From assembly GCA_028824415.1 (NCBI GenBank), contig JAPPDX010000134.1, positions 13,175-77,174 on the forward strand: a DNA stretch of 64,000 nt, read 5' to 3'. The first letter of the stretch is position 1. The number at the start of each line of letters is the position of its first letter. The notes beneath the pieces are model-generated. The model did no database searches, was not told the origin of the DNA, and was given only the letters and a program-made list of their open reading frames with translations. The position numbers were made by a program, and so were the translations under genes. The DNA is from a bacterium (GTDB taxonomy: Bacteria > Actinomycetota > Acidimicrobiia > Acidimicrobiales > CATQHL01). Positions 25,588-39,711 of the stretch are shown here, piece after piece.

Positions 25588-27366
25588 ATGAGGTACTTGA
25601 AGAAGAGCGGTGCTCTCGCGTCACTGCTCGCACTAACGCTCTTGGCAGCGGCGTGCGCGGCCGATGACGCCGCGTCGGAGGCCGCCGACGCGGCGTCCGA
25701 CGCTGCCGACGCGGCTCTGGCGGAGGCGAGAGGTGCATCAGCCGACGCCGCCGACGCCATGGCCGAGGCCCAGGCAACCGCTGCCGCTGCCCAGAGTGCG
25801 GCGGCGGACGCCGCCACCGGGATCGCCGATGCCGCAGCCGCGGATGCGGCCGCTGCGGCGGCACTCGCCGCGGCGGAGGCGGCGCAGGCGGCAGCCGACC
25901 TGGCGCAGGCCACCGCCGAGGGCAACGTGGAGGCCATGGCCTCCGCCGAAGCCGCCCTCGCCGCCGCGCAAGCCGCCGCGGACGAGGCGCTGTCGGAGGC
26001 CGCAGCCGCCCAGGCCGAAGCTGACGAAGCACGAGATGCAGCCGCCGCGGCCCAGGCAGAGGCCGAAGCGGCTCAGGCAGAGGCCGACCAGGCGCGGGCA
26101 GAAGCCGAGGCGGCGCGCGAGGAGGCCGCAGCCGCCCAGGCCGAGGCCGCAGCCGCGGCCGGTCCGGCAGCGGGCTCTATCGAGTTGGACTTCCTCGTGT
26201 TCGAGACCCCGAACCTGCCGGCGGAGTTCTGGGACGACGCCATCGCCCGCACGGTGGCCGATTTCCCGCAGTTCAAGATCAACAAGATCGTGGCACCCGA
26301 CCTCAACATCGGCGACTTCCTCAAGCAGCTGGCAGCCACCGACCAGCTCCCCGACGTCATGATGAGCAACTTCTCCACGGCGGAGTTCATCGCCGAGGGT
26401 CTGCTCCTGCCGTTCGAGCCGGAGGACCTGGAGCGATTCATCGACCCGGTCGGCCTCGGATACACCGACGGCAAGCAGTACGCGCTGCCGATGCTGACGG
26501 TCTACGAGTCAGGCGTCTTCTACAACAAGGACATGTTCGAGGCGGCGGGCATCACCGCCGAGCCGGAGACTTGGGACGAGTTCATCAATGCGGCTCTGGC
26601 CATCGCCGCATCGGGTGAGACGCCGTTCGTCATCGGCGGCGCCGGCGCTGACGCTTGGGCCGCGGGCTGGCCGATCATGAACCTGGCCTCCCTCAACGTG
26701 ACCGGCGCGGACCCGACGTTCAACCAGAAGCTGCGCACCGGTGAGGCCAGTTTCACCGACCCGATCTTCGTGGACGCACTGCGGCCGTACGAGCAGATGG
26801 TGGCCGCAGGATGGCTGACAGGTGAGGAGCTGAACCTCGGCTACGCCGACCTGCAGCAGACGTTCCTCGACGGCGCCGCGGCGATGTACCCGATGGGCAG
26901 CTTCTTCGCCGGTGCGGTGCCGATGGACCATCCGTTCGAGATCGGCATCTTCCCGATGCCCACCCTCGACGGCACCAAGCGCCTCGCCACCTACACGTCG
27001 GGCGGACCGGCCATCTCGGCACGCACCCCCGACCCGGAGGCGGCGCGGCTGTTCTCGGTGGAGTTCGCCACGAACGTCGAGACGAACCTCGACGATCTGA
27101 TCCGCGACGCGCACATCGCCAACAACAAGCTGTTCGTGCTTCCCAGCGACGTGGAACTGCACCCGCTGATCACCGAGGTCATCGAGATCCTGGCCGATCA
27201 GTCGGCCAGGCAGGTCGCCTTCTACACCTTCGAGGTCGGCGACGACGCCCTCGTGGCGGGTATGCAGAACGAATTGTGGATCCAGGCGCAGGAGATGCTG
27301 GCCGGCAGGTCGGCGGAGGAGGCCGCACAGGCCCTCCAGGACGCCTGGAACGACCTCTCCGGCTAG
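25588..27366 (+). CDS. Carbohydrate ABC substrate-binding lipoprotein (SBP family 1) with N-terminal Ala-rich stalk
   Basis: Lipobox LAAAC; ~165 aa Ala-rich region, then LPDV, YALP, FYNKDMFEAAGI, PETWDEF. Confidence 0.92.
   Translation: MRYLKKSGALASLLALTLLAAACAADDAASEAADAASDAADAALAEARGASADAADAMAEAQATAAAAQSAAADAATGIADAAAADAAAAAALAAAEAAQAAADLAQATAEGNVEAMASAEAALAAAQAAADEALSEAAAAQAEADEARDAAAAAQAEAEAAQAEADQARAEAEAAREEAAAAQAEAAAAAGPAAGSIELDFLVFETPNLPAEFWDDAIARTVADFPQFKINKIVAPDLNIGDFLKQLAATDQLPDVMMSNFSTAEFIAEGLLLPFEPEDLERFIDPVGLGYTDGKQYALPMLTVYESGVFYNKDMFEAAGITAEPETWDEFINAALAIAASGETPFVIGGAGADAWAAGWPIMNLASLNVTGADPTFNQKLRTGEASFTDPIFVDALRPYEQMVAAGWLTGEELNLGYADLQQTFLDGAAAMYPMGSFFAGAVPMDHPFEIGIFPMPTLDGTKRLATYTSGGPAISARTPDPEAARLFSVEFATNVETNLDDLIRDAHIANNKLFVLPSDVELHPLITEVIEILADQSARQVAFYTFEVGDDALVAGMQNELWIQAQEMLAGRSAEEAAQALQDAWNDLSG
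25900..26018 (+). repeat. Right arm of 119-bp inverted repeat (stalk coding sequence)
   Basis: See left arm; same peptide, same reading frame. Confidence 0.9.
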
Positions 27367-27376
27367 ACCAACCAAC

Positions 27377-28339
27377 TTGACTTCCGCCGTCAGGGGCTCC
27401 CTCCTGCCGACGCGGAGTCGCGCCGAGCGCCCCTCCGGCCGCCGGGCCGGAGGGCGCCGCCGGCCGCCCGGCGCGGGGCGGCGCAGCTTCGGGCTGATGG
27501 CGATGGGTGCGCCCACCACGGCGCTGTTCGCAGCGCTGGTGGTCGTGCCCATCGGCGTCACCGTCCACTACAGCCTCAACGACGTGAACTTCCTGCGGGA
27601 CGAGATCTCGTGGGTGGGCTTCAGCAACTACGCCAAGCTCTGGGAGAGCGGCGATTTCCGCCACGCCCTCTACGTCACGCTGCTGATCGCCGCCGCCTCG
27701 GTGGTGGTCCCCAATGCTCTGGGGCTGCTCTTCGCGGTGCTGCTGGATGCAGGTTCGCGTCTCTACACGACGCTTCGCATCATTCTCTTCGCGCCGTTCG
27801 TGCTGAGTCCGCTGGTCGTGGGACTGACGTTCCGCTGGACGCTGGCCAACGACGGCTCACTGAACAACGCTCTCGAGGCACTCGGGATTCCGGGACCCGA
27901 GTGGATCAGCTCGCCCAATCTTGCGGTCGTGTCCGTGGGGCTGGCGCTGTCGTGGCAGCTGGTCGCCTTCGCCACCGTCCTCTACGTGGCCGCGCTGCGA
28001 GCCATCCCGACCGACCTCTACGAGGCGGCAAGCATCGACGGCGCCTCGGGATACCTGCGGTTCCGGCTCATCACCTGGCCACTCGTCGCCCCGGCTGTGA
28101 CCATCACGACCCTCATCTCCCTCATCTCCGCCCTGAAGCTCTACGACCACGTCGTGGCTCTGACGGGCGGCGGCCCGGGCCGGTCCTCGGAGACCGTTGG
28201 CTTGGCGATCATCCGCGCCGGCTTCACCCAGAACCGCGCCGGCCTGGCCTCGGCGATGGCGGTGCTCCTACTCGTCATCACGGCGGCGACGACGGCCATA
28301 TCGCTGCGGGTTCTGCGTCGCCGCGAAGTGGAGTTGTGA
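27377..28339 (+). CDS. Carbohydrate ABC permease (CUT1, MalF-like)
   Basis: WVGFSNY, EAA loop DLYEAASIDGAS, ITWPL; true start may be ATG near 27497. Confidence 0.9.
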   Translation: MTSAVRGSLLPTRSRAERPSGRRAGGRRRPPGAGRRSFGLMAMGAPTTALFAALVVVPIGVTVHYSLNDVNFLRDEISWVGFSNYAKLWESGDFRHALYVTLLIAAASVVVPNALGLLFAVLLDAGSRLYTTLRIILFAPFVLSPLVVGLTFRWTLANDGSLNNALEALGIPGPEWISSPNLAVVSVGLALSWQLVAFATVLYVAALRAIPTDLYEAASIDGASGYLRFRLITWPLVAPAVTITTLISLISALKLYDHVVALTGGGPGRSSETVGLAIIRAGFTQNRAGLASAMAVLLLVITAATTAISLRVLRRREVEL

Positions 28340-29145
28340 TGCGCCAGGCACGGGCCCTGCTGGCGATCGTCGTCTCGGCGTTCTTCCTGTTCCCCCTGTA
28401 CCTGGTGATCGCCAACGCCTTCAAGACCGACCCGGAGATCCTGCGGTCACCGGCGAGGCCGCCGATCGGACCGACGCTGGACGGCATGTCGGGGGTGCTC
28501 AGCGTCGGGGACGTGACCGGCGGACTGGTGAACTCACTGCTCATTACCGGCTCGACGATCGCCCTGATCATGGTCGTGTCATCGATGCTGGCGTTCGCCC
28601 TCCACATGTCCAACAGTTGGATCAGCAACGCCGTCGGCACCGTCATCCTCTTCGGTCTGATCCTTCCGACACCGGTAATCCTGATACCGGTGTTCCGCGT
28701 ACTGAAGTACATCGGCCTGGAGAACAGCTTCCCGGGCCTCATCCTCTTCCTTTGCGCCTACTACGCCCCGTTCGCGGTACTCGTGTACCGGGGCTTCATG
28801 CGGTCGATCCCGAAGGAACTGGCCGAAGCGGCCTCGATAGACGGCGCCTCCCTGGCATCCATCTACTGGTCGGTGATCCTGCCGCTACTGCGGCCGGCCA
28901 CGGCGAGCGTGCTGGTGATCTGCGGGGTATGGGTGTGGAACGAGTTCCTGCCCCCGCTGGTGCTGTTGGGTCCGCTGCAGGGCAACACGGTCACCGTGGG
29001 GTTGTTCCGGTCGGTCGGGCAGTTCGACGTGAACTACGGGCAACTCTTCAGCTACATGCTCTTCGTGTCGATACCGGTGCTGGTGTTCTACCTGCTGCTG
29101 CAGAGGTACTTCGTCCGCGGCCTCACCGCGGGCGCCACCAAGTGA
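28339..29145 (+). CDS. Carbohydrate ABC permease (CUT1, MalG-like)
   Basis: NAFKT, IPKELAEAASIDGAS, VWNEFL, QRYFVRGLTAGATK. Confidence 0.92.
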   Translation: MRQARALLAIVVSAFFLFPLYLVIANAFKTDPEILRSPARPPIGPTLDGMSGVLSVGDVTGGLVNSLLITGSTIALIMVVSSMLAFALHMSNSWISNAVGTVILFGLILPTPVILIPVFRVLKYIGLENSFPGLILFLCAYYAPFAVLVYRGFMRSIPKELAEAASIDGASLASIYWSVILPLLRPATASVLVICGVWVWNEFLPPLVLLGPLQGNTVTVGLFRSVGQFDVNYGQLFSYMLFVSIPVLVFYLLLQRYFVRGLTAGATK

Positions 29146-29250
29146 GCGTGGCCGTGCACAGCCCATCACGTGCTGGAGGCAGGCGGCCCCGTCGCATCGT
29201 CCAAACCCGTGAACGCCATCATCGACGACCATCATTCGGAGGCCGAGACC

Positions 29251-30117
29251 ATGTCTGAGACCGCCACCCGACTCATCGACACCCATCTCCACCAGTGGGA
29301 CCTCGACCAGTGCGACTACGCCTGGCTGGATGCCGACCTGCCACCGGCGTTCCACCAGCTCCGCCGAACGTTCCTCGTCGACGAGGCGCGGGAACACATC
29401 GAGGCCACGGGCGTGACCGAGGCGATTCTGGTGCAGGCCGAGAACAGTCTCGCCGACACCGAGGCGATGCTCGCCGTGACGGCGTCGCAGAACCGGGTGG
29501 TCGCGGTGGTCGGCTGGTTCGACATGCTCGACCCCGAGAGGGCATCCGCCGCGCTCGATGCCCTGCAGGCCTCCGGACCGGTCGTGGGGATCCGTCACCT
29601 GATCCACGACGAACCCGATCCCGACTGGGTGCTGCAACCCGCGGTCATCGAGAGCCTCCGCGAGCTGGCCCGACACGGGATGGCCTACGACTTCGTGGGC
29701 GTGCAACTGCGACACCTCGAGCACGTGCCCACGCTGGCGAGCGCGGTCGGGGATCTCCGTATCGTGATCGACCATCTCAACAAGCCGCCCATCGGCACCG
29801 CCGACTTCTCACGCTGGGTGGAGTTGATGGGAGCCGCGGCGAGCTTCTCGAACGTCTTCGCAAAGGTCTCCGGGCTGCACAACGTCACCCCACACGCCGA
29901 CTGGACTCCCGACGACCTGCGGGGCGCCTTCGATGTGGCCCTCGAGTCGTTCGGTTCGGGCCGTCTGATGTTCGGCAGCGACTGGCCCGTCTGCAACGTC
30001 GGCGGGGGCTACCGCCGCCAAGCCGAGGCCTTCGAGGCGCTCATCGGGTCGCTGGACGCCGAGGCCGCCGCGGACCTGCGCTGGCGTTCCGCCTGCCGGG
30101 CCTACGCCCTGGACTGA
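29251..30117 (+). CDS. Amidohydrolase_2, L-fuconolactonase-like
   Basis: IDTHLHQW, ILVQA, VGIRH, VIDHLNKP, KVSGL, MFGSDWPVC. Confidence 0.85.
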   Translation: MSETATRLIDTHLHQWDLDQCDYAWLDADLPPAFHQLRRTFLVDEAREHIEATGVTEAILVQAENSLADTEAMLAVTASQNRVVAVVGWFDMLDPERASAALDALQASGPVVGIRHLIHDEPDPDWVLQPAVIESLRELARHGMAYDFVGVQLRHLEHVPTLASAVGDLRIVIDHLNKPPIGTADFSRWVELMGAAASFSNVFAKVSGLHNVTPHADWTPDDLRGAFDVALESFGSGRLMFGSDWPVCNVGGGYRRQAEAFEALIGSLDAEAAADLRWRSACRAYALD

Positions 30118-30146
30118 TGGCGATTCGGACGAGAGGAGAATCCAAC

Positions 30147-31643
30147 ATGTCCGGTCCACGCGTGGCTGTCGGCGGGATCTTGACCGAGTGCAACGACTTC
30201 GGCGGCCAGCCGATCGACGTGGCCGCGTTCGCGCGCTTCGAACTCCGCTACGGCGACGACGTGTTGACCGTGGCCGGCGGCGTCATGGGCGGGATGTTGG
30301 AGGTTCTCGCCGAGCGTAAGGCAACGCCGGTGCCCCTGCTGTTCGCCTCCACCAGTCCGGGCGGCCCGCTGACGGACGAGTGCTACGAGGCGCTGCGGCG
30401 CGATCTGCTGGCAGCGCTCGAGGCGGTCGTCCCGGTGGACGCCGTCCTGCTGGCACTGCACGGCGCCGCGGTCTCCGAGACCGTGCACGACATCGAGGGG
30501 GACCTGCTGGAGCGTGCCCGCTCGCTCGTCGGTCCGGACGTCCCGATCGTCGCCACCCTGGACCTCCACGCCCACGTCACCGAGGAGATGGCCATCAACG
30601 CCGACGGGCTCGTCGCCTGGGAGACCTATCCCCACCGTGACGCCTACACCACAGGCCGGCGCGGAGCCTCGCTGCTCGTCGATGCCGCCGTCGGCGCGAC
30701 GCGCCCGACGATGGTCATGGCCAAGGTGCCGGTCCTCACGGGCGCCGTGAATGGTTCAACCGAGGGTGACGGGCCGTTCGCCGACATGATGCGCAAGGCC
30801 AAGGCGTTGGAGGAGCGCCCGCACGTGCTGTCCACCAGCATGTTCCTGGTCCATCCCTTCATCGACCGCCCCGGCATGGGCAGCGGGGGGCTCGTCATCG
30901 CCGACGGCGACCCCGCCGGTGCCCGAACGGCTGCTCTGGCCCTGGCCGAGGAGTACTGGCAGCGGCGCCACGAGTTCGAACCCGCCATGTCGAGCCCCGC
31001 CGAGGCAGTCCGGCAGGGCCTGGCGATCGACGACCAGCCGATCGTGCTGATGGAGACGGCTGACGCCTGCGGGGGCGGCGCGGCCGGCGACAGCGTGGCC
31101 TGCATCGCCGCGCTGCTGCGGCACGCGCCGGATGCGACCTCCGTCGCCCCCGTGGTGGACCCCGGGGCGGCCGCGCAGTGCCACGCCGCAGGTGTCGGCG
31201 CCGAGGTGACGCTACGGCTCGGCCACCGACTGGATCCGCGCTGGGGCGAACCGATCTCGGTGAGCGGCACCGTGGAGGCGCTGACCGACGGCAATTTCGT
31301 CTACGAGGGCGGCATCTGGGAGGGCGTGATCGGCGAGATGGGCCCGACGGCGGTCCTGCGATCCGGCGGGCTGCAGATCGTCATCGCCACCCACCCCACC
31401 TACGAGTGGACAGGCGAGCAGTACACCTCGGTGGGCGTGGACGCCGGCGCACCCAAGTTCGCCGTCGTGAAGAACCCCATGAACTATCGGATGGTCTACC
31501 CGGATGCTCCCGCGGTCATCGTCATCGACTCGCCCGGCCCGACTCCCGCTTCGGTGCGATCGCTGCCGTTCGAGCGGATGCAGCGACCCTTCTTCCCTCT
31601 CGACGACGACATCGCCGGTCTGCGCCCGACGGTCTTCTGCTGA
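30147..31643 (+). CDS. M81 family metallopeptidase (MlrC-like)
   Basis: GILTECNDF, LLALHGA, LDLHAH, TYPHRD, ADACGGGAAGD, AVVKN. Confidence 0.88.
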   Translation: MSGPRVAVGGILTECNDFGGQPIDVAAFARFELRYGDDVLTVAGGVMGGMLEVLAERKATPVPLLFASTSPGGPLTDECYEALRRDLLAALEAVVPVDAVLLALHGAAVSETVHDIEGDLLERARSLVGPDVPIVATLDLHAHVTEEMAINADGLVAWETYPHRDAYTTGRRGASLLVDAAVGATRPTMVMAKVPVLTGAVNGSTEGDGPFADMMRKAKALEERPHVLSTSMFLVHPFIDRPGMGSGGLVIADGDPAGARTAALALAEEYWQRRHEFEPAMSSPAEAVRQGLAIDDQPIVLMETADACGGGAAGDSVACIAALLRHAPDATSVAPVVDPGAAAQCHAAGVGAEVTLRLGHRLDPRWGEPISVSGTVEALTDGNFVYEGGIWEGVIGEMGPTAVLRSGGLQIVIATHPTYEWTGEQYTSVGVDAGAPKFAVVKNPMNYRMVYPDAPAVIVIDSPGPTPASVRSLPFERMQRPFFPLDDDIAGLRPTVFC

Positions 31644-31706
31644 AATCGGGATGCCCCGACCGACCTCAAGATGCCGATGCTCGGAGTCTCGGGAATGAGT
31701 TGCTCT

Positions 31707-32099
31707 TCAGGCGAGGCCTGCCGTCTCCAGCCGGCTGTGGCGGGCCAGCACGTCGAAGTCGGCGTCCGCGTGCAGCACGGGCGTGCCCGCCCGCAGAGCG
31801 ACCGCGGCGATCAGGCAGTCGATGAGCTTGCGTACCGTCTCGCCGCCGCTACGACAGGATCGGTAGAGGAGCGCGGCGTGGTCGTAGTCGTCGGGCACGG
31901 TGGGGAGTGTCATGGCCCGCGCCAGTAGCCGGCGCAGCGCCCGGAGATGCATCTCGTCGCGGGCGCCGGCCAGCACTTCCATGCGGATGGCATCGCAGAT
32001 GGCCATGTCCTCGTCGAGCAGTTCATCCACTCTGGCGCAGACGCCGCTGCCCGTGTCGCGCAGGAACTCCACCCAGGCCGACGTGTCGATGAGGATCAC
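31707..32099 (-). CDS. vapC: VapC PIN-domain toxin
   Basis: ILIDTSAWVEF, RMEVLAGA, DCLIAA, HADADF. Confidence 0.92.
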   Translation of the reverse strand: MILIDTSAWVEFLRDTGSGVCARVDELLDEDMAICDAIRMEVLAGARDEMHLRALRRLLARAMTLPTVPDDYDHAALLYRSCRSGGETVRKLIDCLIAAVALRAGTPVLHADADFDVLARHSRLETAGLA

Positions 32100-32299
32100 G
32101 GAGTGCGAGACGCTCGCAGCTCGTCGAGGTCCCCGTGCCAACCCGAGCCCCGCATGGCACGGGCCTCGTCGATATCGAGGGGCTCCGCGGCAAGTCTCCG
32201 CAACGCCAGGTTGACCGCCTCCCGCTTCGTCTCCAGCCGGTAGAGCCGCATCACGGCCAAGCAGGCTTCGTCATCGATGTCGATGTTTGTGCGGCTCAT
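32096..32299 (-). CDS. vapB: VapB antitoxin
   Basis: MSRTNIDIDDE...TKREAVNLALRRL; 4-nt overlap with vapC. Confidence 0.92.
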   Translation of the reverse strand: MSRTNIDIDDEACLAVMRLYRLETKREAVNLALRRLAAEPLDIDEARAMRGSGWHGDLDELRASRTP

Positions 32300-32320
32300 A
32301 CACCTAGCATACACCATACC
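32300..32320 (-). promoter_or_regulatory. Probable leaderless vapBC promoter with direct repeat
   Basis: TATGCT -10-like hexamer (32311-32306) 6 nt before ATG; GGTGTATG repeated with 11-nt period, second copy including the start codon. Confidence 0.5.
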
Positions 32321-32362
32321 ACCGGACGCGAAGCCTTGGCACGCGGTATGCCGGAGCGACTC

Positions 32363-33661
32363 CTAGAAGAACGTGCGCACCGCTCTGACGATGTTGTGGT
32401 CGTCGTCGGCGACCGGCAGGGCGCGCCAGCGGTCGAACGAGGTGCAGGGATGGCTGATGCCGCACCCCACCTGGTCGCCGACTCGGAGGTCGAAGCCAGG
32501 CGCGATACGCACGAAGGCGTGCTGGTCGTTGAGCTCGAAGATCTTGAGTTGGCCGTCCACGTCGTGCATCTTGCCGTCGCGGCGGATCACCTCGGGCATT
32601 GGCAGGTCCACGTCGTAGGAGCCGTCGCGCTTGCCGAAGCCCAGCAGGGCCAGATCTGGCTCGGGTCGGGAGACGACGTAGGACCACAGCGTCAGTGCGG
32701 GACGCAGCGCCGGGTAGCTGTCCATCGGAGCCCGCACCCCGAACGGCCCCGAGTCGGTGTACATCTTCGAGTCGTGCGTGGCGTAGCCACCGGGGCGGAT
32801 GATCGGCCGCACGGGTCGGCCGATGTCCCAGTCGCTTCCCAGGATGGCCACCACCCGGTCGGGGAACATGCTGCCGCCGGCGGTGACGATCACCTCGTCG
32901 AGGTGGTCGAAGTGGCCGGCCGCAGCGAGCCGCTCGGTGAGCTCGCGCATGCGGTGGAGGAACTCGTCGACCTCGCTGAAGTCGTCGCCATGGAAGTGCA
33001 GGATGCCCTCGTAGCCCTCCACGCCGACGAGGCGGAGGCGGTCCGACGCAGCGATGCGCTCGGCCACCCGCACCGCTCCCTCGATGGTCCGGCAGCCGGT
33101 CCGGCCCGCCATCATGCCGAGTTCCACCAGCCCGTCGACGGGCCGTCCGGCGGGCCGTCCGGCCAGTGCCGCCTCCATCAAATCCACGCATTCGACCGAG
33201 TCGATGAGACAGGACAAATCCACCTCGGGATGGGCGTCGAGCTCGTCGGCCATCCAGGTGACCGCCGCGGGGTCCACGACCTGGTGGGCAATGAGGATCC
33301 GGGGAATGTCGAAGGCCCGGAAGATGCGGGCCTGGCTGCCGGTGGAGGCGGTGATGGCCCACGCCCCCGCCTCCAGTTGGAGGTGCGACAACTCGGGTGA
33401 CATGGTCGTCTTGCCGTGCGGCGCCAGCGAGACGCCGCTGTCTGCGCAGAAGCGGGCGACGACCTCGATGTTGTGCATCAGGTCGCTGTGGGAGATGACC
33501 ATCACCGGGAACATGAAGTCGTCGGCGAACAGGTTCAGCCCGGCCTCGGCGATCGAGTCGAGGTCGGCGCCCGGCGCCAGGGGCCAGCCCTTGTACTGCC
33601 AGCCGAGATCGGCGTTGGCAACGTCGTAGTGCCGGGTCCAGCCCGCTGTGTGGTTCGTCAT
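32363..33661 (-). CDS. PLP-dependent amino acid deaminase, D-serine dehydratase (DSD1)/alanine racemase fold
   Basis: LAPHGKTTM PLP lysine, GRTGCR, GVEGYEG, TAGGS, RPGGY, LNDQH, GISHPCT. Confidence 0.85.
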   Translation of the reverse strand: MTNHTAGWTRHYDVANADLGWQYKGWPLAPGADLDSIAEAGLNLFADDFMFPVMVISHSDLMHNIEVVARFCADSGVSLAPHGKTTMSPELSHLQLEAGAWAITASTGSQARIFRAFDIPRILIAHQVVDPAAVTWMADELDAHPEVDLSCLIDSVECVDLMEAALAGRPAGRPVDGLVELGMMAGRTGCRTIEGAVRVAERIAASDRLRLVGVEGYEGILHFHGDDFSEVDEFLHRMRELTERLAAAGHFDHLDEVIVTAGGSMFPDRVVAILGSDWDIGRPVRPIIRPGGYATHDSKMYTDSGPFGVRAPMDSYPALRPALTLWSYVVSRPEPDLALLGFGKRDGSYDVDLPMPEVIRRDGKMHDVDGQLKIFELNDQHAFVRIAPGFDLRVGDQVGCGISHPCTSFDRWRALPVADDDHNIVRAVRTFF

Positions 33662-33664
33662 TGT

Positions 33665-34084
33665 TCAGGCCTCCGGTGCGTAGGCCACGCACTCGATCTC
33701 GACGAGGATGTTTCCGTAGATCTTCGCTCCGACGGTCGTGCGGGTGGGTGGCTCGGTCGGGAAGTACTCCAAGTAGACCTCGTTGTAGGCCGCGAAGTGA
33801 CGGTCGACGTCGCGCAGGAACGTGTTGACCTTGACCACGTCGGACAGCTGTGCCCCGGCGGCCTCGAGGGCCGTCTTGATGTTCTCCAGCGTCTGGCGGG
33901 TCTCGGCCTCGATGCCGCCCTCAACCAGGGCGCCAGGTTGCCAGCTGCCGTCCCCGGCGGTCGCCGAACTGCGCGGCAACAGCCCGGCATTGCCCGACAC
34001 GAAGACGAAATCCCCCGCCCTGATCACCGGCGACAGGAACGGGTGTCCCGGCGGCCCGTCCGGGACCTCGTAGACGCGCTTCAT
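33665..34084 (-). CDS. RidA/YjgF family imine deaminase
   Basis: SPVIRAGDFVFVSG, VVKVNTFL, PTRTTV, VEIECVA. Confidence 0.9.
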   Translation of the reverse strand: MKRVYEVPDGPPGHPFLSPVIRAGDFVFVSGNAGLLPRSSATAGDGSWQPGALVEGGIEAETRQTLENIKTALEAAGAQLSDVVKVNTFLRDVDRHFAAYNEVYLEYFPTEPPTRTTVGAKIYGNILVEIECVAYAPEA

Positions 34085-34176
34085 GGGCCCTCCCGAGGGT
34101 GCTCGCGGTCGGTTCGGAGACTGTAGACGCGGCGTTCCCGTCCCGCCGATACCCACGTTGGAGTACTTTCGACGCC

Positions 34177-34848
34177 ATGGCGATACCTCGGGCGGAGCTC
34201 TGTGAGCGCTTCCGGCGCATACCCATGACGGCGGTCTGTGACGCCATCTACCGGGCGGGCCGCGTCGAGCGCGTCCTGCCGTCGTACCTCCGGCCGCTGT
34301 TCCCCACCCAGCGAGTCGTCGGCATTGCCCGAACGGTCCTCGGCGTCGGGTTCGACGAGCAGTTGCCGTGGGAGGAGGGCGTCGAGCGGATCCAGTCGTA
34401 CTTGCGGATGTTCGACGGCATCCAGCCCGACGACGTGTTGGTGTCGGTCAACGGTGACAGCCCTGTCGGCCACTTCGGCGAACTCACCGGCAACGCCGCG
34501 CAGGTGCACGGCTGCGTGGGCGTGATCCTCGACGGCAACCTGCGCGACACCGACGGGCTGCGGGACATCGGGCTGCAGGTCTTCTACCGCGACATGTCGC
34601 CCTTGAATGCCATCGGCCGCTGGGAGATGGCGGCCACCCAGGTGCCCGTGACCATCGGCGACGTGGAGATCAACCCCGGTGACGTGATCCACGCCGACTT
34701 CGACGGGATTCTGGTGATCCCGGGTGCGGAGGCTGAGCAGGTGCTGCAGGACTCCGAGACCGTGATGGCCGGCGAGGATCTCGTGCGCGAGGACATGCGT
34801 CGCGGGCTCTCCCCGGCGGAGGGGCTCGAGAAGCACGGCTACATCTGA
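34177..34848 (+). CDS. RraA / HMG aldolase family protein
   Basis: TAVCDA, GELTG, LDGNLRD, PGDVIHADFDGILVIP. Confidence 0.88.
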   Translation: MAIPRAELCERFRRIPMTAVCDAIYRAGRVERVLPSYLRPLFPTQRVVGIARTVLGVGFDEQLPWEEGVERIQSYLRMFDGIQPDDVLVSVNGDSPVGHFGELTGNAAQVHGCVGVILDGNLRDTDGLRDIGLQVFYRDMSPLNAIGRWEMAATQVPVTIGDVEINPGDVIHADFDGILVIPGAEAEQVLQDSETVMAGEDLVREDMRRGLSPAEGLEKHGYI

Positions 34849-34890
34849 TGGCCACCGGGGCGGGTTACCAGGGTTTCGGGCTACTGCCCC

Positions 34891-34940
34891 GTCGTTCCGG
34901 CGAAGAGCCTGCGCCAGACTCGATCTGGGGCCGGAACCCA
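34891..34940 (+). repeat. REP-like palindrome, long form
   Basis: GTCGTTCCGGCGAAG-AGCCTGCGCCAGACTCGATCTGGG-GCCGGAACCCA: short-form arms with an inner hairpin. Confidence 0.75.
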
Positions 34941-34971
34941 GGCATCGGCAACGAACCGGGCGGTTGAGGAC

Positions 34972-35220
34972 ATGAGCGGGCGCACGCCGATTCTCGTACC
35001 ACACTCCGGCGTGGTGGAGAGTGTGATCCTCGTGGAATGGCTGCACGAGTCCGGTGCGCGCGTCGAGGAGGGCGAGGAGGTGGTGATCGTCGAGTCCGAG
35101 AAGGCCGAGACGGCCATCGAGGCGCCGGCCGGCGGCACCCTTGAGATCCTCATCCGCGCCGATCCGAACGACGACGTCGAGGTCGACGTCGGCACGATCA
35201 TCGGCCACATCGTGGCGTGA
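34972..35220 (+). CDS. Stand-alone lipoyl/biotinyl carrier domain
   Basis: 82 aa; EW...GARVEEGEEVVIVESEKAETAIEAPAGGTL, lipoyl-lysine turn ESEKA. Confidence 0.88.
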   Translation: MSGRTPILVPHSGVVESVILVEWLHESGARVEEGEEVVIVESEKAETAIEAPAGGTLEILIRADPNDDVEVDVGTIIGHIVA

Positions 35221-35978
35221 CTGCCCTGGCGCGCTTCTCGCTGGACGGGCGGGTCACCCTCGTAACCGGCGCCGCCAGCGGGCTCGGCCGGGCCATCGCC
35301 GTGGGATTCGCCGAGGCGGGCGCCCAGGTGCGCTGCGTCGACCGCGACGCTGCCGGCAACGAGGAGGCGGCGCTGTCGATCGGCAAGGCTGCGGATGCCG
35401 TCACGGCGGACATGACCGACGCCGCTGCGGTCACTGCGGCCGTCGACGGTTTGGTCGCCGATGCGGGCCGTGTGGACGTGCTCGTGAACAGCGCCGGCGT
35501 CGGGGGACGGTCTCCCGCCGTGGACTACCCCGAGGAGCTCTGGGACTCGGTGATGGAGATCAACCTACGAGGCACCTATCTGGCCTGCCGGGCGGCGGGC
35601 CGGCACATGGTGGCCGCCGGCTCCGGCTCGATCATCAACATCGCCTCGGTCGGCGGCCTGGCCGGCTTCCCCGGCAGCCTCGGCTACCAGGCCTCCAAGG
35701 GCGGTGTTGTGGCCCTCACCCGCACTCTCGCCATCGAATGGGCACCGCACGGGGTGCGGGTCAACGCCATCGCCCCCTCGCAGTTCGAGTCCGCCATCGT
35801 GCTGGCGCAGTGGGAGAAGGAACCGGAGATGCGCGCCGACTGGGAGTCCCGCACGCCGCTCGGGCGCATCGGGCAACCCGACGAGATCGTCGGACCGGCC
35901 GTCTTCCTGGCCTCCGACGCCGCCGCCATGGTGACCGGGCACATCCTGGCTGTCGACGGCGGCTACCTGGCGCAGTGA
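35217..35978 (+). CDS. SDR family oxidoreductase
   Basis: VTGAASGLG, NSAG, YQASK, VNAIAP, GHILAVDGG. Confidence 0.93.
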   Translation: MTALARFSLDGRVTLVTGAASGLGRAIAVGFAEAGAQVRCVDRDAAGNEEAALSIGKAADAVTADMTDAAAVTAAVDGLVADAGRVDVLVNSAGVGGRSPAVDYPEELWDSVMEINLRGTYLACRAAGRHMVAAGSGSIINIASVGGLAGFPGSLGYQASKGGVVALTRTLAIEWAPHGVRVNAIAPSQFESAIVLAQWEKEPEMRADWESRTPLGRIGQPDEIVGPAVFLASDAAAMVTGHILAVDGGYLAQ

Positions 35979-36030
35979 GAGAGCCGGCCGTCCGCGCTCG
36001 GCGGGCCGCTGCGGTCCGGGCGGCCGCACC

Positions 36031-37041
36031 GTGAGACCGCCGACCGGTCCTGCGACGCTCGCCGGCTTCAGCCCGGAGGTCGCCCTGCCGATCCACGCCA
36101 CGATGGTGCGCATCCGCGTCTTCGAGACGAGGGTGACGGAGCTGTTCGCGGCCGGGAGGCTGCCCGGCTTCGTGCACACCTACCTGGGCCAGGAGGCCAT
36201 CGCCGCGGCCACCTGCCGGCACCTCCGCGACGACGACTACATCACCTCCACCCACCGCGGCCACGGCCACGCCATCGCCAAGGGGATGCCGACCAACCGG
36301 CTGATGGCCGAACTGTTCGGCAGGGAGACCGGCGCCAATCGCGGCCGGGGCGGTTCGATGCACGTGGCGGATTTCTCGCTCGGCATGCTCGGCGCCAACG
36401 GAATCGTCGGCGGCGGCTTCGGCATCGCCGCCGGGGCCGGGCTGTCGGCCCGGCGGCGGGGCTCTGGGCAGGTGGCGGTGTGCTTCTTCGGCGACGGCGG
36501 CATCAACAAGGGCACCTTCCACGAGGCGCTCAACTTCGCCTCGGTGCAGTCGCTTCCCGTGGTGTTCGTGTGCGAGAACAACCAGTACGCCCAGTTCACC
36601 GCCATCAGCCGAACCTCCGCGGTGGGGGATCTGGCAATCCGGGCCACCGGTTACGCCATGCCGGGGACGACCGTCGACGGCAACGACGCCGGTGCCGTCT
36701 ACGCCGCGGTGGGCGCAGCCGTCGGGGCGGCTCGCGATGGCGACGGACCGGCGCTGCTGAACTGCGTGACCTACCGCCACAGCGGCCACTACGTCGGCGA
36801 CGCCGAGGTCTACCGCGATGCCACCGAGGTGGAGCAGTGGCAGGCGGCCGACCCGATCGGTCGGCTGGAGGAAGCGCTCGTTGGGGCCGGGTGGGTGGAT
36901 GAGCCGGATGTCGGCGCGGTCTGGGAGGCCGCCCGGACCGAGACCGCGGCAGCGGAGGAGTTCGCCGCCTCTTCCTCCGATCCCGACCCTGCCACGGCCC
37001 TGGACTACGTGTACACCCACGCCGATGGGGTGGACCCGTGA
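36031..37041 (+). CDS. TPP-dependent dehydrogenase E1 alpha (AcoA/PdhA-like)
   Basis: GFVHTYLGQEA, STHRGHGH, GGSMH, GDG...N, TYRHSGH. Confidence 0.93.
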   Translation: MRPPTGPATLAGFSPEVALPIHATMVRIRVFETRVTELFAAGRLPGFVHTYLGQEAIAAATCRHLRDDDYITSTHRGHGHAIAKGMPTNRLMAELFGRETGANRGRGGSMHVADFSLGMLGANGIVGGGFGIAAGAGLSARRRGSGQVAVCFFGDGGINKGTFHEALNFASVQSLPVVFVCENNQYAQFTAISRTSAVGDLAIRATGYAMPGTTVDGNDAGAVYAAVGAAVGAARDGDGPALLNCVTYRHSGHYVGDAEVYRDATEVEQWQAADPIGRLEEALVGAGWVDEPDVGAVWEAARTETAAAEEFAASSSDPDPATALDYVYTHADGVDP

Positions 37042-38015
37042 AGCGCATGTCGTTCGGCCAGGCGACCGTGGACGCCACCCGCCTCGCCATGCGGGAGGAC
37101 GAGCGGGTGATCGTGCTGGGGGAGGACATCAGCTGGGGCGGCAACTTCGGGCAGTTCCGGGGCCTGCTGGAGGAGTTCGGCCCCGACCGCATCATCGACA
37201 TGCCCATCTCGGAGGCACTCATCATGTCGGCCTCCGTCGGGGCAGCCATGACCGGCCTGCGGCCGGTGGCGTCGATGAGCTTCCTGGAATTCACCATGGG
37301 AGCCATGGACGAGATCGTCAACCAGGCCGCCAAGATGCGCTACATGTCCGGAGGCCAGGTGAGCGTGCCGCTGGTGCTGCGGGCCTCCGACGGCATCCTG
37401 CGTTCCTCAGCCGCCCAGCACTCCGGCAGCCTCGAGTCGCTCTTCACCCACATTGCCGGCCTGAAGGTGGTGGCGCCGTCCAACCCGGCCGACGCCAAGG
37501 GCCTGCTGCGCTCGGCCATGGACGACGACGACCCGGTCATCTACCTCGAGAACAAGTCCATCACCGCCAAACGCGGTCCTGTGCCCGAGGACGACCACCG
37601 GGTGCCTCTGGGCTCGGCTTCGGTGGTCCTGGAAGGAACCGATGTGACCCTGATCACCTACTCGGCCATGGCGCTGCGAGGTGCCGACGCCGCGGCCACC
37701 CTCGCCGACGACCATGACGTCTCCGCCGAACTGATCGACCTGCGCAGTCTGTGGCCTCTGGACTTCGAGACGGTGGCCTCGTCGGTGTCCAAGACCGGAC
37801 GGGTGGTCATAGCCCACGAGGCATGGCTAAACGGCGGATTAGGCGCCGAACTCTCCGCCCGCATCGGCGAGGAACTGTTCGCCGACCTGAAGGCCCCGGT
37901 GGTCCGTATCGGCGCCGCGCGGGCCCCGATCCCCTTCAGCCCCCCGCTTGAGAGCGCCGTTGTCCCCGGAACCGACGCCATCGTCGACGCCGTCCTACGG
38001 GTGCTGCCCTCATGA
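37038..38015 (+). CDS. TPP-dependent dehydrogenase E1 beta (AcoB/PdhB-like)
   Basis: LGEDI, DMPISE, AAQHS, DAKGLL, IDLRSLWPLD, VSKTGR. Confidence 0.93.
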   Translation: MKRMSFGQATVDATRLAMREDERVIVLGEDISWGGNFGQFRGLLEEFGPDRIIDMPISEALIMSASVGAAMTGLRPVASMSFLEFTMGAMDEIVNQAAKMRYMSGGQVSVPLVLRASDGILRSSAAQHSGSLESLFTHIAGLKVVAPSNPADAKGLLRSAMDDDDPVIYLENKSITAKRGPVPEDDHRVPLGSASVVLEGTDVTLITYSAMALRGADAAATLADDHDVSAELIDLRSLWPLDFETVASSVSKTGRVVIAHEAWLNGGLGAELSARIGEELFADLKAPVVRIGAARAPIPFSPPLESAVVPGTDAIVDAVLRVLPS

Positions 38016-38086: not shown

Positions 38087-39517
38087 TCAGTCGAACGATA
38101 GCCCTTCCCCGACTGCGTGGCGCGGCCACGGCGCGGCCTCCTCGAACGCCGCCGCTGCGCGCATGACGAGGGCGTCCTGCCGCCAACCGCCCACGATCTG
38201 CAGACCCACCGGCAGGCCGCCGGACATCCCGCACGGCACGCTCGCCGCCGGCAGCCCGGTGATGTTGAACGGGTACGTGAACGGGGTCCAACTGAGGTAC
38301 TCCGTTGGCCTCCCGGCCACCTGGCCCGGCTGGTCGGCGCCGGCCGCGAAGGCGGTGAGCGGGAGCGTCGGCGTCAAGAGCAGGTCGTAGCCGGCCATGA
38401 ACTGCCGGACCGTCTCGGCGAACGTGGACTTGGCCGCATGGGCAGCAGCCAATTCGGGACCCGTGATCCGCATGGCGCTCTCGATGATCTCAAGGCGGCC
38501 CGGGTCGATGAGATGGCGCACCTGCTCGAGATCCTGGAGATGACGAGCGGCGTTTCCGGCCGACCAGATCGCGTCCAGGAACGGGTACGGGTCGTCCCAG
38601 CCGGGCACAACCTCGCTGATGTGGCAGCCGAGGGACTCGAAGGTGACGGCCGCCGCAGCGGTCAACTCCCGGACCTCGGGTTCGACGGCCGCATATCCCA
38701 GGTCGGGGCTCCAGGCCACGCGCAGTTCCCCGATCGGCCCGGTCACTGCCGAGGCGTAGTCGGAGCCGGTGTCGGGAAGCGAGAACCTGTCCCTCGGATC
38801 GGGACCGGCCACCACGTCAAGCATGTCCGCCGCGTCGGCGACGGTGGTGGCCAACACTCCCACGTGCGACATTGACTCGATGGGGCTGATCGGATAGGCG
38901 GGGATGACGCCGGCTGACGGCTTGATACCGAAGACCCCGCAGAAAGCCGCGGGAATCCGAACCGAGCCGGCACCGTCGGTGCCGATGGCCACCGGGCCGA
39001 GTCCGGCAGCCACCGCCGCAGCCGCGCCCCCACTGGACCCTCCCGCTGTCCGGTCGAGCTGCCATGGATTCCTGGCCGGCCCAACGACTCTGTTGCCGGA
39101 TTCACCCTTCCATCCGAACTCGCTGGTTGTGGTCTTGCCCAGAAGGGGAGCCTGGGCGGCGCGGAGCCGCTCGGAGGAGGGCGAGTCGAACTCGGGAACC
39201 CAATCCGCCAGCAAGAGCGACCCCATCGTCGTGCGCACGCCCTGTGTCGCGACCATGTCCTTGATCGAGATCGGCACCCCGCAGAGCGCACCGCCGGGAT
39301 CCCCCGCGCCACCGCCGCCGCGAAGCATCCGCTCGGCGGCCGCGGCCGCCCGCCGTGCCTCGTCGCCGGTCACCGTCACGAAAGCCGTGAGATCGCCGTT
39401 CAGCCGCTCGATCCTGCCCAGGACGGTCTCAACCACGACGGCGGGCGTCAGTTCCCCGGACTCGTAGCCCGAGCGGAGTTGCCGGGCGGTCATCTGCGCA
39501 AGGCGCTCGTCAGGCAT
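38087..39517 (-). CDS. Amidase (amidase signature family)
   Basis: ISIKD, GKTTTSEF, GGSSGGAAA, GTDGAGSVRIP, PVGLQ. Confidence 0.93.
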   Translation of the reverse strand: MPDERLAQMTARQLRSGYESGELTPAVVVETVLGRIERLNGDLTAFVTVTGDEARRAAAAAERMLRGGGGAGDPGGALCGVPISIKDMVATQGVRTTMGSLLLADWVPEFDSPSSERLRAAQAPLLGKTTTSEFGWKGESGNRVVGPARNPWQLDRTAGGSSGGAAAAVAAGLGPVAIGTDGAGSVRIPAAFCGVFGIKPSAGVIPAYPISPIESMSHVGVLATTVADAADMLDVVAGPDPRDRFSLPDTGSDYASAVTGPIGELRVAWSPDLGYAAVEPEVRELTAAAAVTFESLGCHISEVVPGWDDPYPFLDAIWSAGNAARHLQDLEQVRHLIDPGRLEIIESAMRITGPELAAAHAAKSTFAETVRQFMAGYDLLLTPTLPLTAFAAGADQPGQVAGRPTEYLSWTPFTYPFNITGLPAASVPCGMSGGLPVGLQIVGGWRQDALVMRAAAAFEEAAPWPRHAVGEGLSFD

Positions 39518-39711
39518 GACACGCCGTCTACCATCGAGACCGGGCAAGGGCAACTGCGAAGCGGGCGCGGCGCCAAAGCCCGATCCCTGCGGTCGGGCGC
39601 TCCGGAGCGACGAGGCCCTCGACGGCTACCGCTGGGGCACAAAGACCAAGCCGCCGTGCTGGCCGCCGACGCCGAGAACACCACGGGCGCCCCAACGCGA
39701 GCATCCCCAGG

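Follow-up and report, generated by a model that had tools for sequence, protein, structure and literature searches.

A route for the catabolism of GlcNAc1A, an oxidised product of chitin, was described by Jiang et al. in 2022 for Pseudoalteromonas prydzensis ACAM 620, where it is encoded by the Ong cluster with the core operon ongCRBD (PMC9537276). According to this work, OngB, a homologue of D-aminoacylases whose structure is the subject of a separate paper (PMC12017989), deacetylates GlcNAc1A, after which OngC, a fold-type III pyridoxal phosphate (PLP) deaminase, and OngD, a RidA protein, convert the product into 2-keto-3-deoxygluconate (KDG) and ammonia, and KDG is phosphorylated by KdgK (PMC9537276). 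OngC was also found to deaminate D-Ser and D-Thr (PMC9537276). In our study, a stretch of 64,000 nucleotides (hereafter the window) from a sponge-associated actinobacterium was analysed, located on contig C60 (JAPPDX010000134.1, positions 13,175 to 77,174) of a 3.19-Mb metagenome-assembled genome that is 91% complete. It holds a block of genes for a sugar transporter, an Amidohydro_2 protein, an M81 hydrolase, a DSD1-fold PLP enzyme with RidA, and an operon of an RraA-family protein, a lipoyl domain, a short-chain dehydrogenase/reductase (SDR) and a two-subunit E1 enzyme. Our best explanation, which is tentative and carries somewhat less than even confidence, is that this block is a mosaic whose units jointly encode a variant of the Ong pathway that works without phosphorylation and uses different enzymes for several steps.

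Three transcription units and an inserted VapBC pair make up the block (Table 1). Unit 1, on the plus strand, comprises the solute-binding lipoprotein, two permeases, Amidohydro_2 and M81, Unit 2, on the minus strand, comprises RidA followed by the DSD1-fold enzyme, and Unit 3, again on the plus strand, is built of RraA, the lipoyl domain, the SDR, E1 alpha and E1 beta. RidA and RraA are divergent, with 92 bp between them, and the junctions lipoyl/SDR and E1 alpha/E1 beta within Unit 3 overlap. Genes in the window, which has about 70% G+C, were chosen by third-position G+C and then confirmed with Pfam and NCBIfam, while operon boundaries were set by gene spacing and strand only; a scan for promoters and terminators over 25.0-40.5 kb gave nothing exceeding shuffled controls. 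All genes listed in a preliminary description of this DNA were recovered in place with the Pfam and NCBIfam models, and its observation that the block carries no sugar kinase also holds, as there is no PfkB kinase in the window and the only two PfkB matches of the genome lie on contigs C37 and C32. The layout of two halves given there has to be replaced by three units, and it made no mention of the VapBC pair, of the missing transporter ATPase gene, or of the amidase convergent with E1 beta, which may be a member of the system.

In the proposed route, the cell would import an N-acyl amino sugar or the corresponding aldonolactone or aldonic acid, the SDR would oxidise the substrate and the Amidohydro_2 protein would open the lactone. 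The N-acyl group would then be stripped by the M81 hydrolase, a role suggested by its context and by its position, which in relatives is taken by a D-aminoacylase-like enzyme. The DSD1 enzyme together with RidA would form a 2-keto-3-deoxy acid by elimination of water and ammonia, as expected from homology to a characterised family. RraA could subsequently split this acid, without phosphorylation, into pyruvate and an aldehyde, and the E1/lipoyl/SDR trio would afterwards oxidise a candidate substrate, either pyruvate or a hydroxy-ketone product. Such a route shares with the Ong pathway N-deacylation before deamination, a 2-keto-3-deoxy acid as the product and the lack of phosphorylation before deamination, and the window also has a putative fold-type III PLP deaminase paired with RidA, the latter mirroring OngD. 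Unlike the Ong cluster, the block has no D-aminoacylase of the OngB type (Amidohydro_3) and carries the M81 hydrolase instead, and the locus is without KdgK, the RpiR regulator, GH20, TonB receptors and the SSS transporter. On the other hand, it adds a CUT1 ABC importer, the lactonase-like Amidohydro_2, the RraA aldolase and the set of E1, free lipoyl domain and SDR. By this comparison, the logic leading from a deacylase, through a deaminase with RidA, to a 2-keto-3-deoxy acid is already established, having been demonstrated experimentally in 2022 with a related enzyme.

The DSD1 enzyme provides a connection to this chemistry. RidA lies 3 bp upstream of it on the same strand, and the PLP lysine K84 (in HGK) and the motif H404-x-C406 are invariant among its relatives (alignment A1). 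Among solved structures, the closest to it is that of an uncharacterised protein, 3gwq (248 bits); D-threonine aldolases and D-serine/3-hydroxyaspartate dehydratases are distant from it. The enzyme probably acts as an ammonia-lyase on beta-hydroxy-D-amino acids or on hexosaminates. Of 400 sampled Gammaproteobacteria, four genomes in addition to the seed genome G431 contained a relative of DSD1. Two of these loci, L119 and L120, have DSD1 with Amidohydro_3 and RidA downstream, a layout resembling ongCRBD, and the intervening genes of L120 are annotated as a sugar-acid permease of the GntP type and a regulator of the RpiR type. Orthology to Ong was judged by this gene order in gammaproteobacterial genomes. 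The DSD1 proteins of both loci align with that of the window over the full length (36% identity, E about 1e-65), and in a quick maximum-likelihood tree they fall within the 86-row family that also includes the window enzyme. The sequence of N-deacylation, deamination with RidA and formation of a 2-keto-3-deoxy acid, as put forward in the preliminary description, is in this respect sound, since it matches the Ong pathway (PMC9537276) and the window DSD1 shares its family with the enzymes of ong-like operons.

Gene neighbourhoods of DSD1 were collected from 80 loci of a scan of species genomes and 14 loci of a class sample, and the flanks were searched using a panel of window proteins and proteins of well-annotated relatives as queries. 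Counts refer to the 67 loci outside the genus that span 12 kb or more, with neighbours no more than 10 kb away. An SDR was the commonest neighbour (40 of 67), followed by D-aminoacylase-like Amidohydro_3 (25), RidA (23) and amidase-signature amidases (22), while RraA-like proteins were found in 16 loci, E1 in 12, PfkB kinases and hydantoinase A/B in 11 each, M81 in 10, Amidohydro_2 in nine and DHDPS-family aldolases in eight. The one copy of the PfkB kinase that was tested, from locus L067, has KDG/KDGal kinase as its top model (273 bits). In Chloroflexota and Dormibacterota, an operon with the order RraA-RidA-SDR-Amidohydro_3-isochorismatase-DSD1-KDG kinase-Amidohydro_2-amidase is followed by a peptide-type ABC system. 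Co-occurrence, which had been suggested as a check, is seen for DSD1 with RidA, SDR, RraA-like, M81 and Amidohydro_2 in part of the 67 loci; the full join is restricted to the genus. In the tree, the DSD1 of locus L085, from a record titled Candidatus Micrarchaeaceae archaeon, is nested among Dormibacterota sequences, and the contig is probably mis-binned.

The window DSD1 falls into a well-supported clade of 17 rows from Acidimicrobiia. Marine relatives in this clade (60-72% identity) have DSD1 inside a larger cluster that includes a DHDPS-family aldolase, a fused E1, a free lipoyl domain, an SDR and an Xaa-Pro-dipeptidase-like Amidohydro_1, and also PhyH, cupin, amidase, alpha/beta-hydrolase, hydantoinase A/B and RidA. 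A creatinine or hydantoin reading of the sister clusters was considered and left as speculation, since the required dehydrogenases are lacking. In sister clusters of Acidimicrobiia, a class I (DHDPS) aldolase stands next to lipoyl-SDR-E1 in place of the class II (RraA) protein of the window. Aldol cleavage of a 4-hydroxy-2-oxo acid after deamination is suggested by this arrangement, because two unrelated families of pyruvate aldolases occupy the same place. Locus L020, from another family, combines Amidohydro_3-SDR-RidA, DSD1 and RraA-lipoyl-SDR-E1 alpha/beta, with identities to the window of 58-71% (43% for the lipoyl domain). Since the window has Amidohydro_2-M81 where L020 has Amidohydro_3-SDR, this locus offers the best, though indirect, argument for M81 as a deacylase.

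In regard to the M81 hydrolase itself, a search of a paper library for M81/DUF1485 gave only work on microcystinase, and no link to sugars was found in this library. Both Pfam domains of the window protein (DUF1485 and MlrC_C) score above their cut-offs, and its zinc ligands E14, D139, H141 and H163 align to E39, D167, H169 and H191 of MlrC. As all four ligands are conserved, the protein is probably an active hydrolase. It has the two-domain fold family and the zinc ligands in common with microcystinase MlrC (peptidase family M81; PDB 7ylq, PMC9982164), and it reaches 179 bits against the MlrC model NF041767, for which the cut-off is 999. Unlike MlrC, the orthologues of the window M81 lie in gene contexts of sugar acids and not of mlr genes. 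These orthologues form a tight group, with 57-61% identity across Planctomycetota, Latescibacterota and Chloroflexota. Their contexts were examined in six loci looked up individually and in about 30 metagenome contigs of at least 5 kb. The neighbours of orthologues with 49-70% identity include LacI, CUT1, Amidohydro_2, GFO/IDH/MocA, acid-sugar dehydratases and sulfatases, with xylose-isomerase-like TIM barrels and SDRs as further recurrent ones, and the 70%-identical relative is found with a LacI and CUT1 system, Amidohydro_2 and GFO/IDH/MocA. The commonest recognised neighbour is an enolase-superfamily protein scoring as arabinonate, galactonate or talarate dehydratase. The possibility that these enolase-superfamily proteins are dipeptide epimerases, which would favour a peptide role, was rejected, as they score as acid-sugar dehydratases. 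Marine metagenome contigs L134-L137, L158, L125 and L127-L129 carry M81 orthologues (55-61%) beside enolase-superfamily genes of the acid-sugar-dehydratase type, and in L127-L129 a second M81 paralogue is located about 5 kb from the orthologue. Activity of M81 on a sugar-acid derivative is well supported by gene context.

The M81 gene starts 30 bp past Amidohydro_2. The latter protein has L-fucono-1,5-lactonase (NF052480) as its top NCBIfam match, with 152 bits against a cut-off of 400, and scores 86 bits against PDB 4dlf. It shares the Amidohydro_2 fold and a full-length alignment with the L-fucono-1,5-lactonase BmulJ_04915 (COG3618; PDB 4dlf), yet represents a distant subfamily, and the Pfam Amidohydro_2 cut-off is the only one it exceeds. 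The deacylase role that the preliminary description had assigned to M81 gains from the sugar-acid contexts of its orthologues and from the exchange of position seen in L020, while the role as such is a reading of gene context.

Unit 3 begins with a putative class II aldolase of 4-hydroxy-2-oxo acids (pyruvate aldolase) or oxaloacetate decarboxylase. The RraA protein carries the motif R123-D124, an Arg-Asp pair which we take to be the catalytic residues in PDB 3noj, and it shares the fold and this motif with HMG/CHA aldolase of the RraA family (3noj), yet it lies far below the equivalog cut-offs, with 84-91 bits for the NCBIfam HMG/CHA-aldolase models compared to the required 179-304. The lipoyl lysine is K44, in ESEKAE, and the best NCBIfam matches of the SDR are the GolD/DthD, gluconate 5-dehydrogenase, glucose 1-dehydrogenase, KduD and BudC types. 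E1 alpha reaches 324 bits for TIGR03182 (cut-off 394) and E1 beta 322 bits for PRK09212; neither an E2 catalytic domain nor E3 was found within 25.5-40.4 kb. Acetoin dehydrogenase AcoA/AcoB/AcoC(/AcoL) and E1 of the pyruvate dehydrogenase type have in common with this unit the type of E1 alpha/beta, the lipoyl carrier and an adjoining butanediol-dehydrogenase-like SDR. Unlike in these systems, the lipoyl domain of the window is free-standing, the block encodes neither E3 nor a catalytic E2 or hydrolase domain, and an RraA-type aldolase comes first. Searches of the literature on free-standing lipoyl domains with E1 and on D-glucosaminate dehydratase gave nothing explaining Unit 3, and catabolism of hydroxyproline or 4-hydroxy-2-oxoglutarate was considered for it and left as speculation, the required dehydrogenases being absent.

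Orthologues of RraA (56-65% identity) are present in nine of 400 genomes of the class, and database relatives outside the genus reach up to about 76% identity. Several families preserve the five-gene order RraA-lipoyl-SDR-E1. A junction of this operon with DSD1 is limited to the genus of the window, genome G124 and, partly, genome G401, and in one case the operon adjoins a cupin-amidase-hydrolase trio. The loci of the RraA operon appear to follow a common logic, in which an amide hydrolase is followed by removal of the amino group, and the resulting 2-oxo acid is taken over by RraA and E1. The aldol cleavage suggested in the preliminary description is favoured by the replacement of RraA with a DHDPS-family aldolase in sister clusters, whereas the occurrence of the RraA operon mostly without DSD1, and linked to peptide genes, weakens the claim of a single pathway.

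Table 1. Genes of the block and the adjoining amidase, with positions in the window and the basis of each assignment.
Feature	Position	Strand	Basis
CUT1-type solute-binding lipoprotein	25588..27366	+	Pfam SBP_bac_1, 100 bits
ABC permease 1	27497..28339	+	Pfam BPD_transp_1; start codon picked from reading frame
ABC permease 2	28339..29145	+	Reading frame; start overlaps permease 1 stop
Amidohydro_2 (COG3618-like), putative sugar-lactone hydrolase	29251..30117	+	Pfam, 134 bits
M81 (MlrC-like) zinc hydrolase	30147..31643	+	Pfam DUF1485, 277 bits; MlrC_C, 134 bits
VapC (PIN) toxin	31707..32099	-	Pfam PIN, 59 bits
VapB-like antitoxin	32096..32299	-	Small open reading frame overlapping VapC start
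DSD1-fold (fold-type III PLP) enzyme	32363..33661	-	Pfam D-ser_dehydrat
RidA enamine/imine deaminase	33665..34084	-	Pfam Ribonuc_L-PSP, 92 bits; TIGR00004
RraA-family protein	34177..34848	+	Pfam RraA-like, 95 bits (cut-off 24.5)
Free-standing lipoyl domain, 82 aa	34972..35220	+	Pfam Biotin_lipoyl
SDR	35217..35978	+	Pfam adh_short_C2, 218 bits
Thiamine-diphosphate E1 alpha	36031..37041	+	Pfam E1_dh, 252 bits
E1 beta	37038..38015	+	Pfam Transket_pyr and Transketolase_C; start overlaps E1 alpha stop
Amidase-signature amidase	38087..39553	-	Pfam Amidase, 341 bits; convergent with E1 beta

The sugar transporter at the beginning of Unit 1 has a solute-binding lipoprotein with a lipobox, a linker of about 190 residues rich in Ala, Glu and Asp, and then the SBP_bac_1 domain. 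In this linker (window 25660-26230), 99 of the approximately 190 residues are Ala, with Glu, Asp and Gln in addition. The solved structure closest to the solute-binding domain is that of the chitin-oligosaccharide-binding NagB2 (7eho), at only 90 bits, a match that speaks for the amino-sugar route. Permease 2 is 91-99% identical in congeners. No MalK-type ATPase gene for the CUT1 system is present in the block; in the congener loci L121-L123 a MalK gene lies between permease 2 and Amidohydro_2, where the window has only 106 bp (29146-29250). By this comparison, the ATPase gene belonging to the transporter appears to have been lost from this genome, and it is possible that a shared ATPase is encoded elsewhere in the genome.

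Conservation within the genus was followed in 20-kb stretches around M81, compared for 13 congener loci; as the congeners are kin, such conservation is weak as functional evidence. M81 is present in 13 of 17 congeners with 85-93% identity, and in 11 of the 13 loci Amidohydro_2-M81 converges on DSD1-RidA, which is divergent from RraA-lipoyl-SDR-E1 alpha/beta. The VapB and VapC genes (31707-32299, minus strand), which separate the converging M81 and DSD1, co-vary and are found in three of the 13 loci, and because they are limited to these three, they can be regarded as a recent insertion at the operon junction. One congener locus (L010, G014:C1:557900-577800) apparently retains only a truncated piece of M81, matching residues 2-147, alongside intact genes for Amidohydro_2, DSD1 and the RraA operon.

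Elsewhere in the genome, contig C124 (4000-20000, L174) carries two sugar-type permeases and MalK, then Amidohydro_3, a short paralogue of DSD1 (26% identity) and, 3 kb on, RidA; this Amidohydro_3 is the only good OngB-type match of the genome. A second set of lipoyl-SDR-fused E1 is located on contig C18 (12000-28000, L175), with an Xaa-Pro-dipeptidase-like Amidohydro_1, cupin, amidase and alpha/beta-hydrolase, and with a PhyH homologue placed by tblastn between Amidohydro_1 and cupin, while contig C47 has a DHDPS-family gene and hydantoinase A/B genes. The genes of C18 and C47 surround DSD1 in related genera and are scattered in this genome. Neither KDPG aldolase (PF01081) nor GH20 was found, and as the genome is 91% complete, their absence is not proven. 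The lack of a detectable KDPG aldolase is consistent with non-phosphorylative cleavage, and that of GH20 suggests a substrate that is monomeric or already processed.

Several of our observations weigh against a single amino-sugar route, and some of them would agree with the catabolism of peptides or N-acyl-D-amino acids. In such a scenario, peptides with D-residues or N-acyl-D-amino acids would enter, possibly via the adjacent Dpp-type transporter, M81 would act on them as a peptidase or acylase and free a beta-hydroxy-D-amino acid such as D-Ser, D-Thr or D-3-hydroxyaspartate, DSD1 and RidA would turn this into pyruvate, 2-oxobutyrate or oxaloacetate, and RraA, as an oxaloacetate decarboxylase, together with E1/lipoyl would consume the 2-oxo acid. 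The main evidence comes from the RraA operon, which in most other lineages occurs without DSD1. RraA orthologues with 60-65% identity lead the operon in these cases, and the genes before it encode a peptide ABC system, an X-Pro dipeptidyl peptidase (S15), an aminotransferase of class I/II and an M20 peptidase. These contexts fit a 2-oxo acid derived from amino acids as well as a sugar acid, and because transamination cannot plausibly give KDG, the 2-oxo acid fed to the operon may not be a sugar acid. It is also in line with amino acid substrates that OngC itself acts on D-Ser and D-Thr, that MlrC, the sole characterised M81 enzyme, is a peptidase, and that pyruvate dehydrogenase E1 gives the top models of the E1 subunits. 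Furthermore, the CUT1 transporter is absent from four of the 13 congener loci, in which Amidohydro_2-M81 directly adjoin a Dpp-type peptide solute-binding gene, and such genes are found near DSD1 in eight other loci. However, the orthologues of the window M81 have sulfatases, acid-sugar dehydratases, GFO oxidoreductases and LacI/CUT1 for neighbours and not peptide genes, the lactonase-like gene is tightly coupled to M81, and a KDG/KDGal-type kinase follows DSD1 in 11 loci of other phyla. Orthology of the window's peptide solute-binding protein to the ones linked with the RraA operon was also rejected, as the identity is only 24%. Taken together, we find the peptide scenario somewhat unlikely, though only a little less likely than the amino-sugar route.

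It could also be that the block is an assembly of chance neighbours, in which units for sugar lactones and sugar acids, for D-amino-acid deamination and for an acetoin-type E1/lipoyl enzyme were gathered in a rearrangement-prone region and have no substrate in common. The variable VapBC insertion and the gain and loss of whole units among congeners would agree with such an origin, including the two of 13 loci without the part from RidA to E1, and so would the different usual context of each unit elsewhere, the free recombination of the modules in Acidimicrobiia, the lack of a regulator gene in the block and the uninformative scan for promoters and terminators. Adjacency of all three units is limited to this genus, and other lineages show no more than partial joins. 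On the other hand, the presence of M81-family (10/67), RraA-like (16/67) and E1 (12/67) genes around DSD1 is far above the expectation in a 20-kb neighbourhood for families occurring about once per genome, DSD1 and the RraA operon are also joined in two further families (loci L020 and L031), and RidA and RraA share their divergent intergenic region, so we regard a purely accidental grouping as quite improbable. A mosaic variant of the Ong pathway has further points against it. DSD1 was in none of the examined contexts of M81 orthologues, and the M81 genes that do adjoin DSD1 in other families of Acidimicrobiia and in Gaiellales/Thermoleophilia are paralogues with 30-35% identity, often accompanied by Amidohydro_3. 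N-deacylation by M81 is deduced from context, all specific family models (lactonase, aldolase and pyruvate dehydrogenase E1) score below the NCBIfam cut-offs, and the identity of the window DSD1 to the ong-like proteins is only 36%. In addition, the set on contig C124 is a more canonical Ong-like core than that of the window. For the single pathway proposed in the preliminary description, this means that the middle steps match a known route, while the three units are unified only in the genus and Unit 3 is self-contained.

A broader extension of the amino-sugar explanation can be envisaged, although we think it unlikely to hold in full. This M81 subfamily could represent carbohydrate-acid amidohydrolases (N-acyl-hexosaminate deacylases) that replace OngB, and the RraA or DHDPS aldolase with lipoyl-SDR-E1 could be a portable lower pathway for 2-oxo acids supplied by interchangeable upper modules, with M81, Amidohydro_3, Amidohydro_1 or M20 as the hydrolase and DSD1 with RidA or an aminotransferase for deamination. 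Together, they would constitute a fully non-phosphorylative route from an amino sugar to an acetyl unit in sponge-associated Acidimicrobiia.

Tying the E1 and free-lipoyl module to a defined upstream deaminase narrows its candidate substrates. If M81 does deacylate oxidised amino sugars, a widespread and highly conserved subfamily of these proteins would gain a function, and the oxidative chitin/GlcNAc1A route, so far found in marine Gammaproteobacteria, would also be represented in Actinomycetota, Chloroflexota and Dormibacterota. For the organism itself, the locus would then point to the use of host or dietary amino-sugar polymers by a sponge symbiont.

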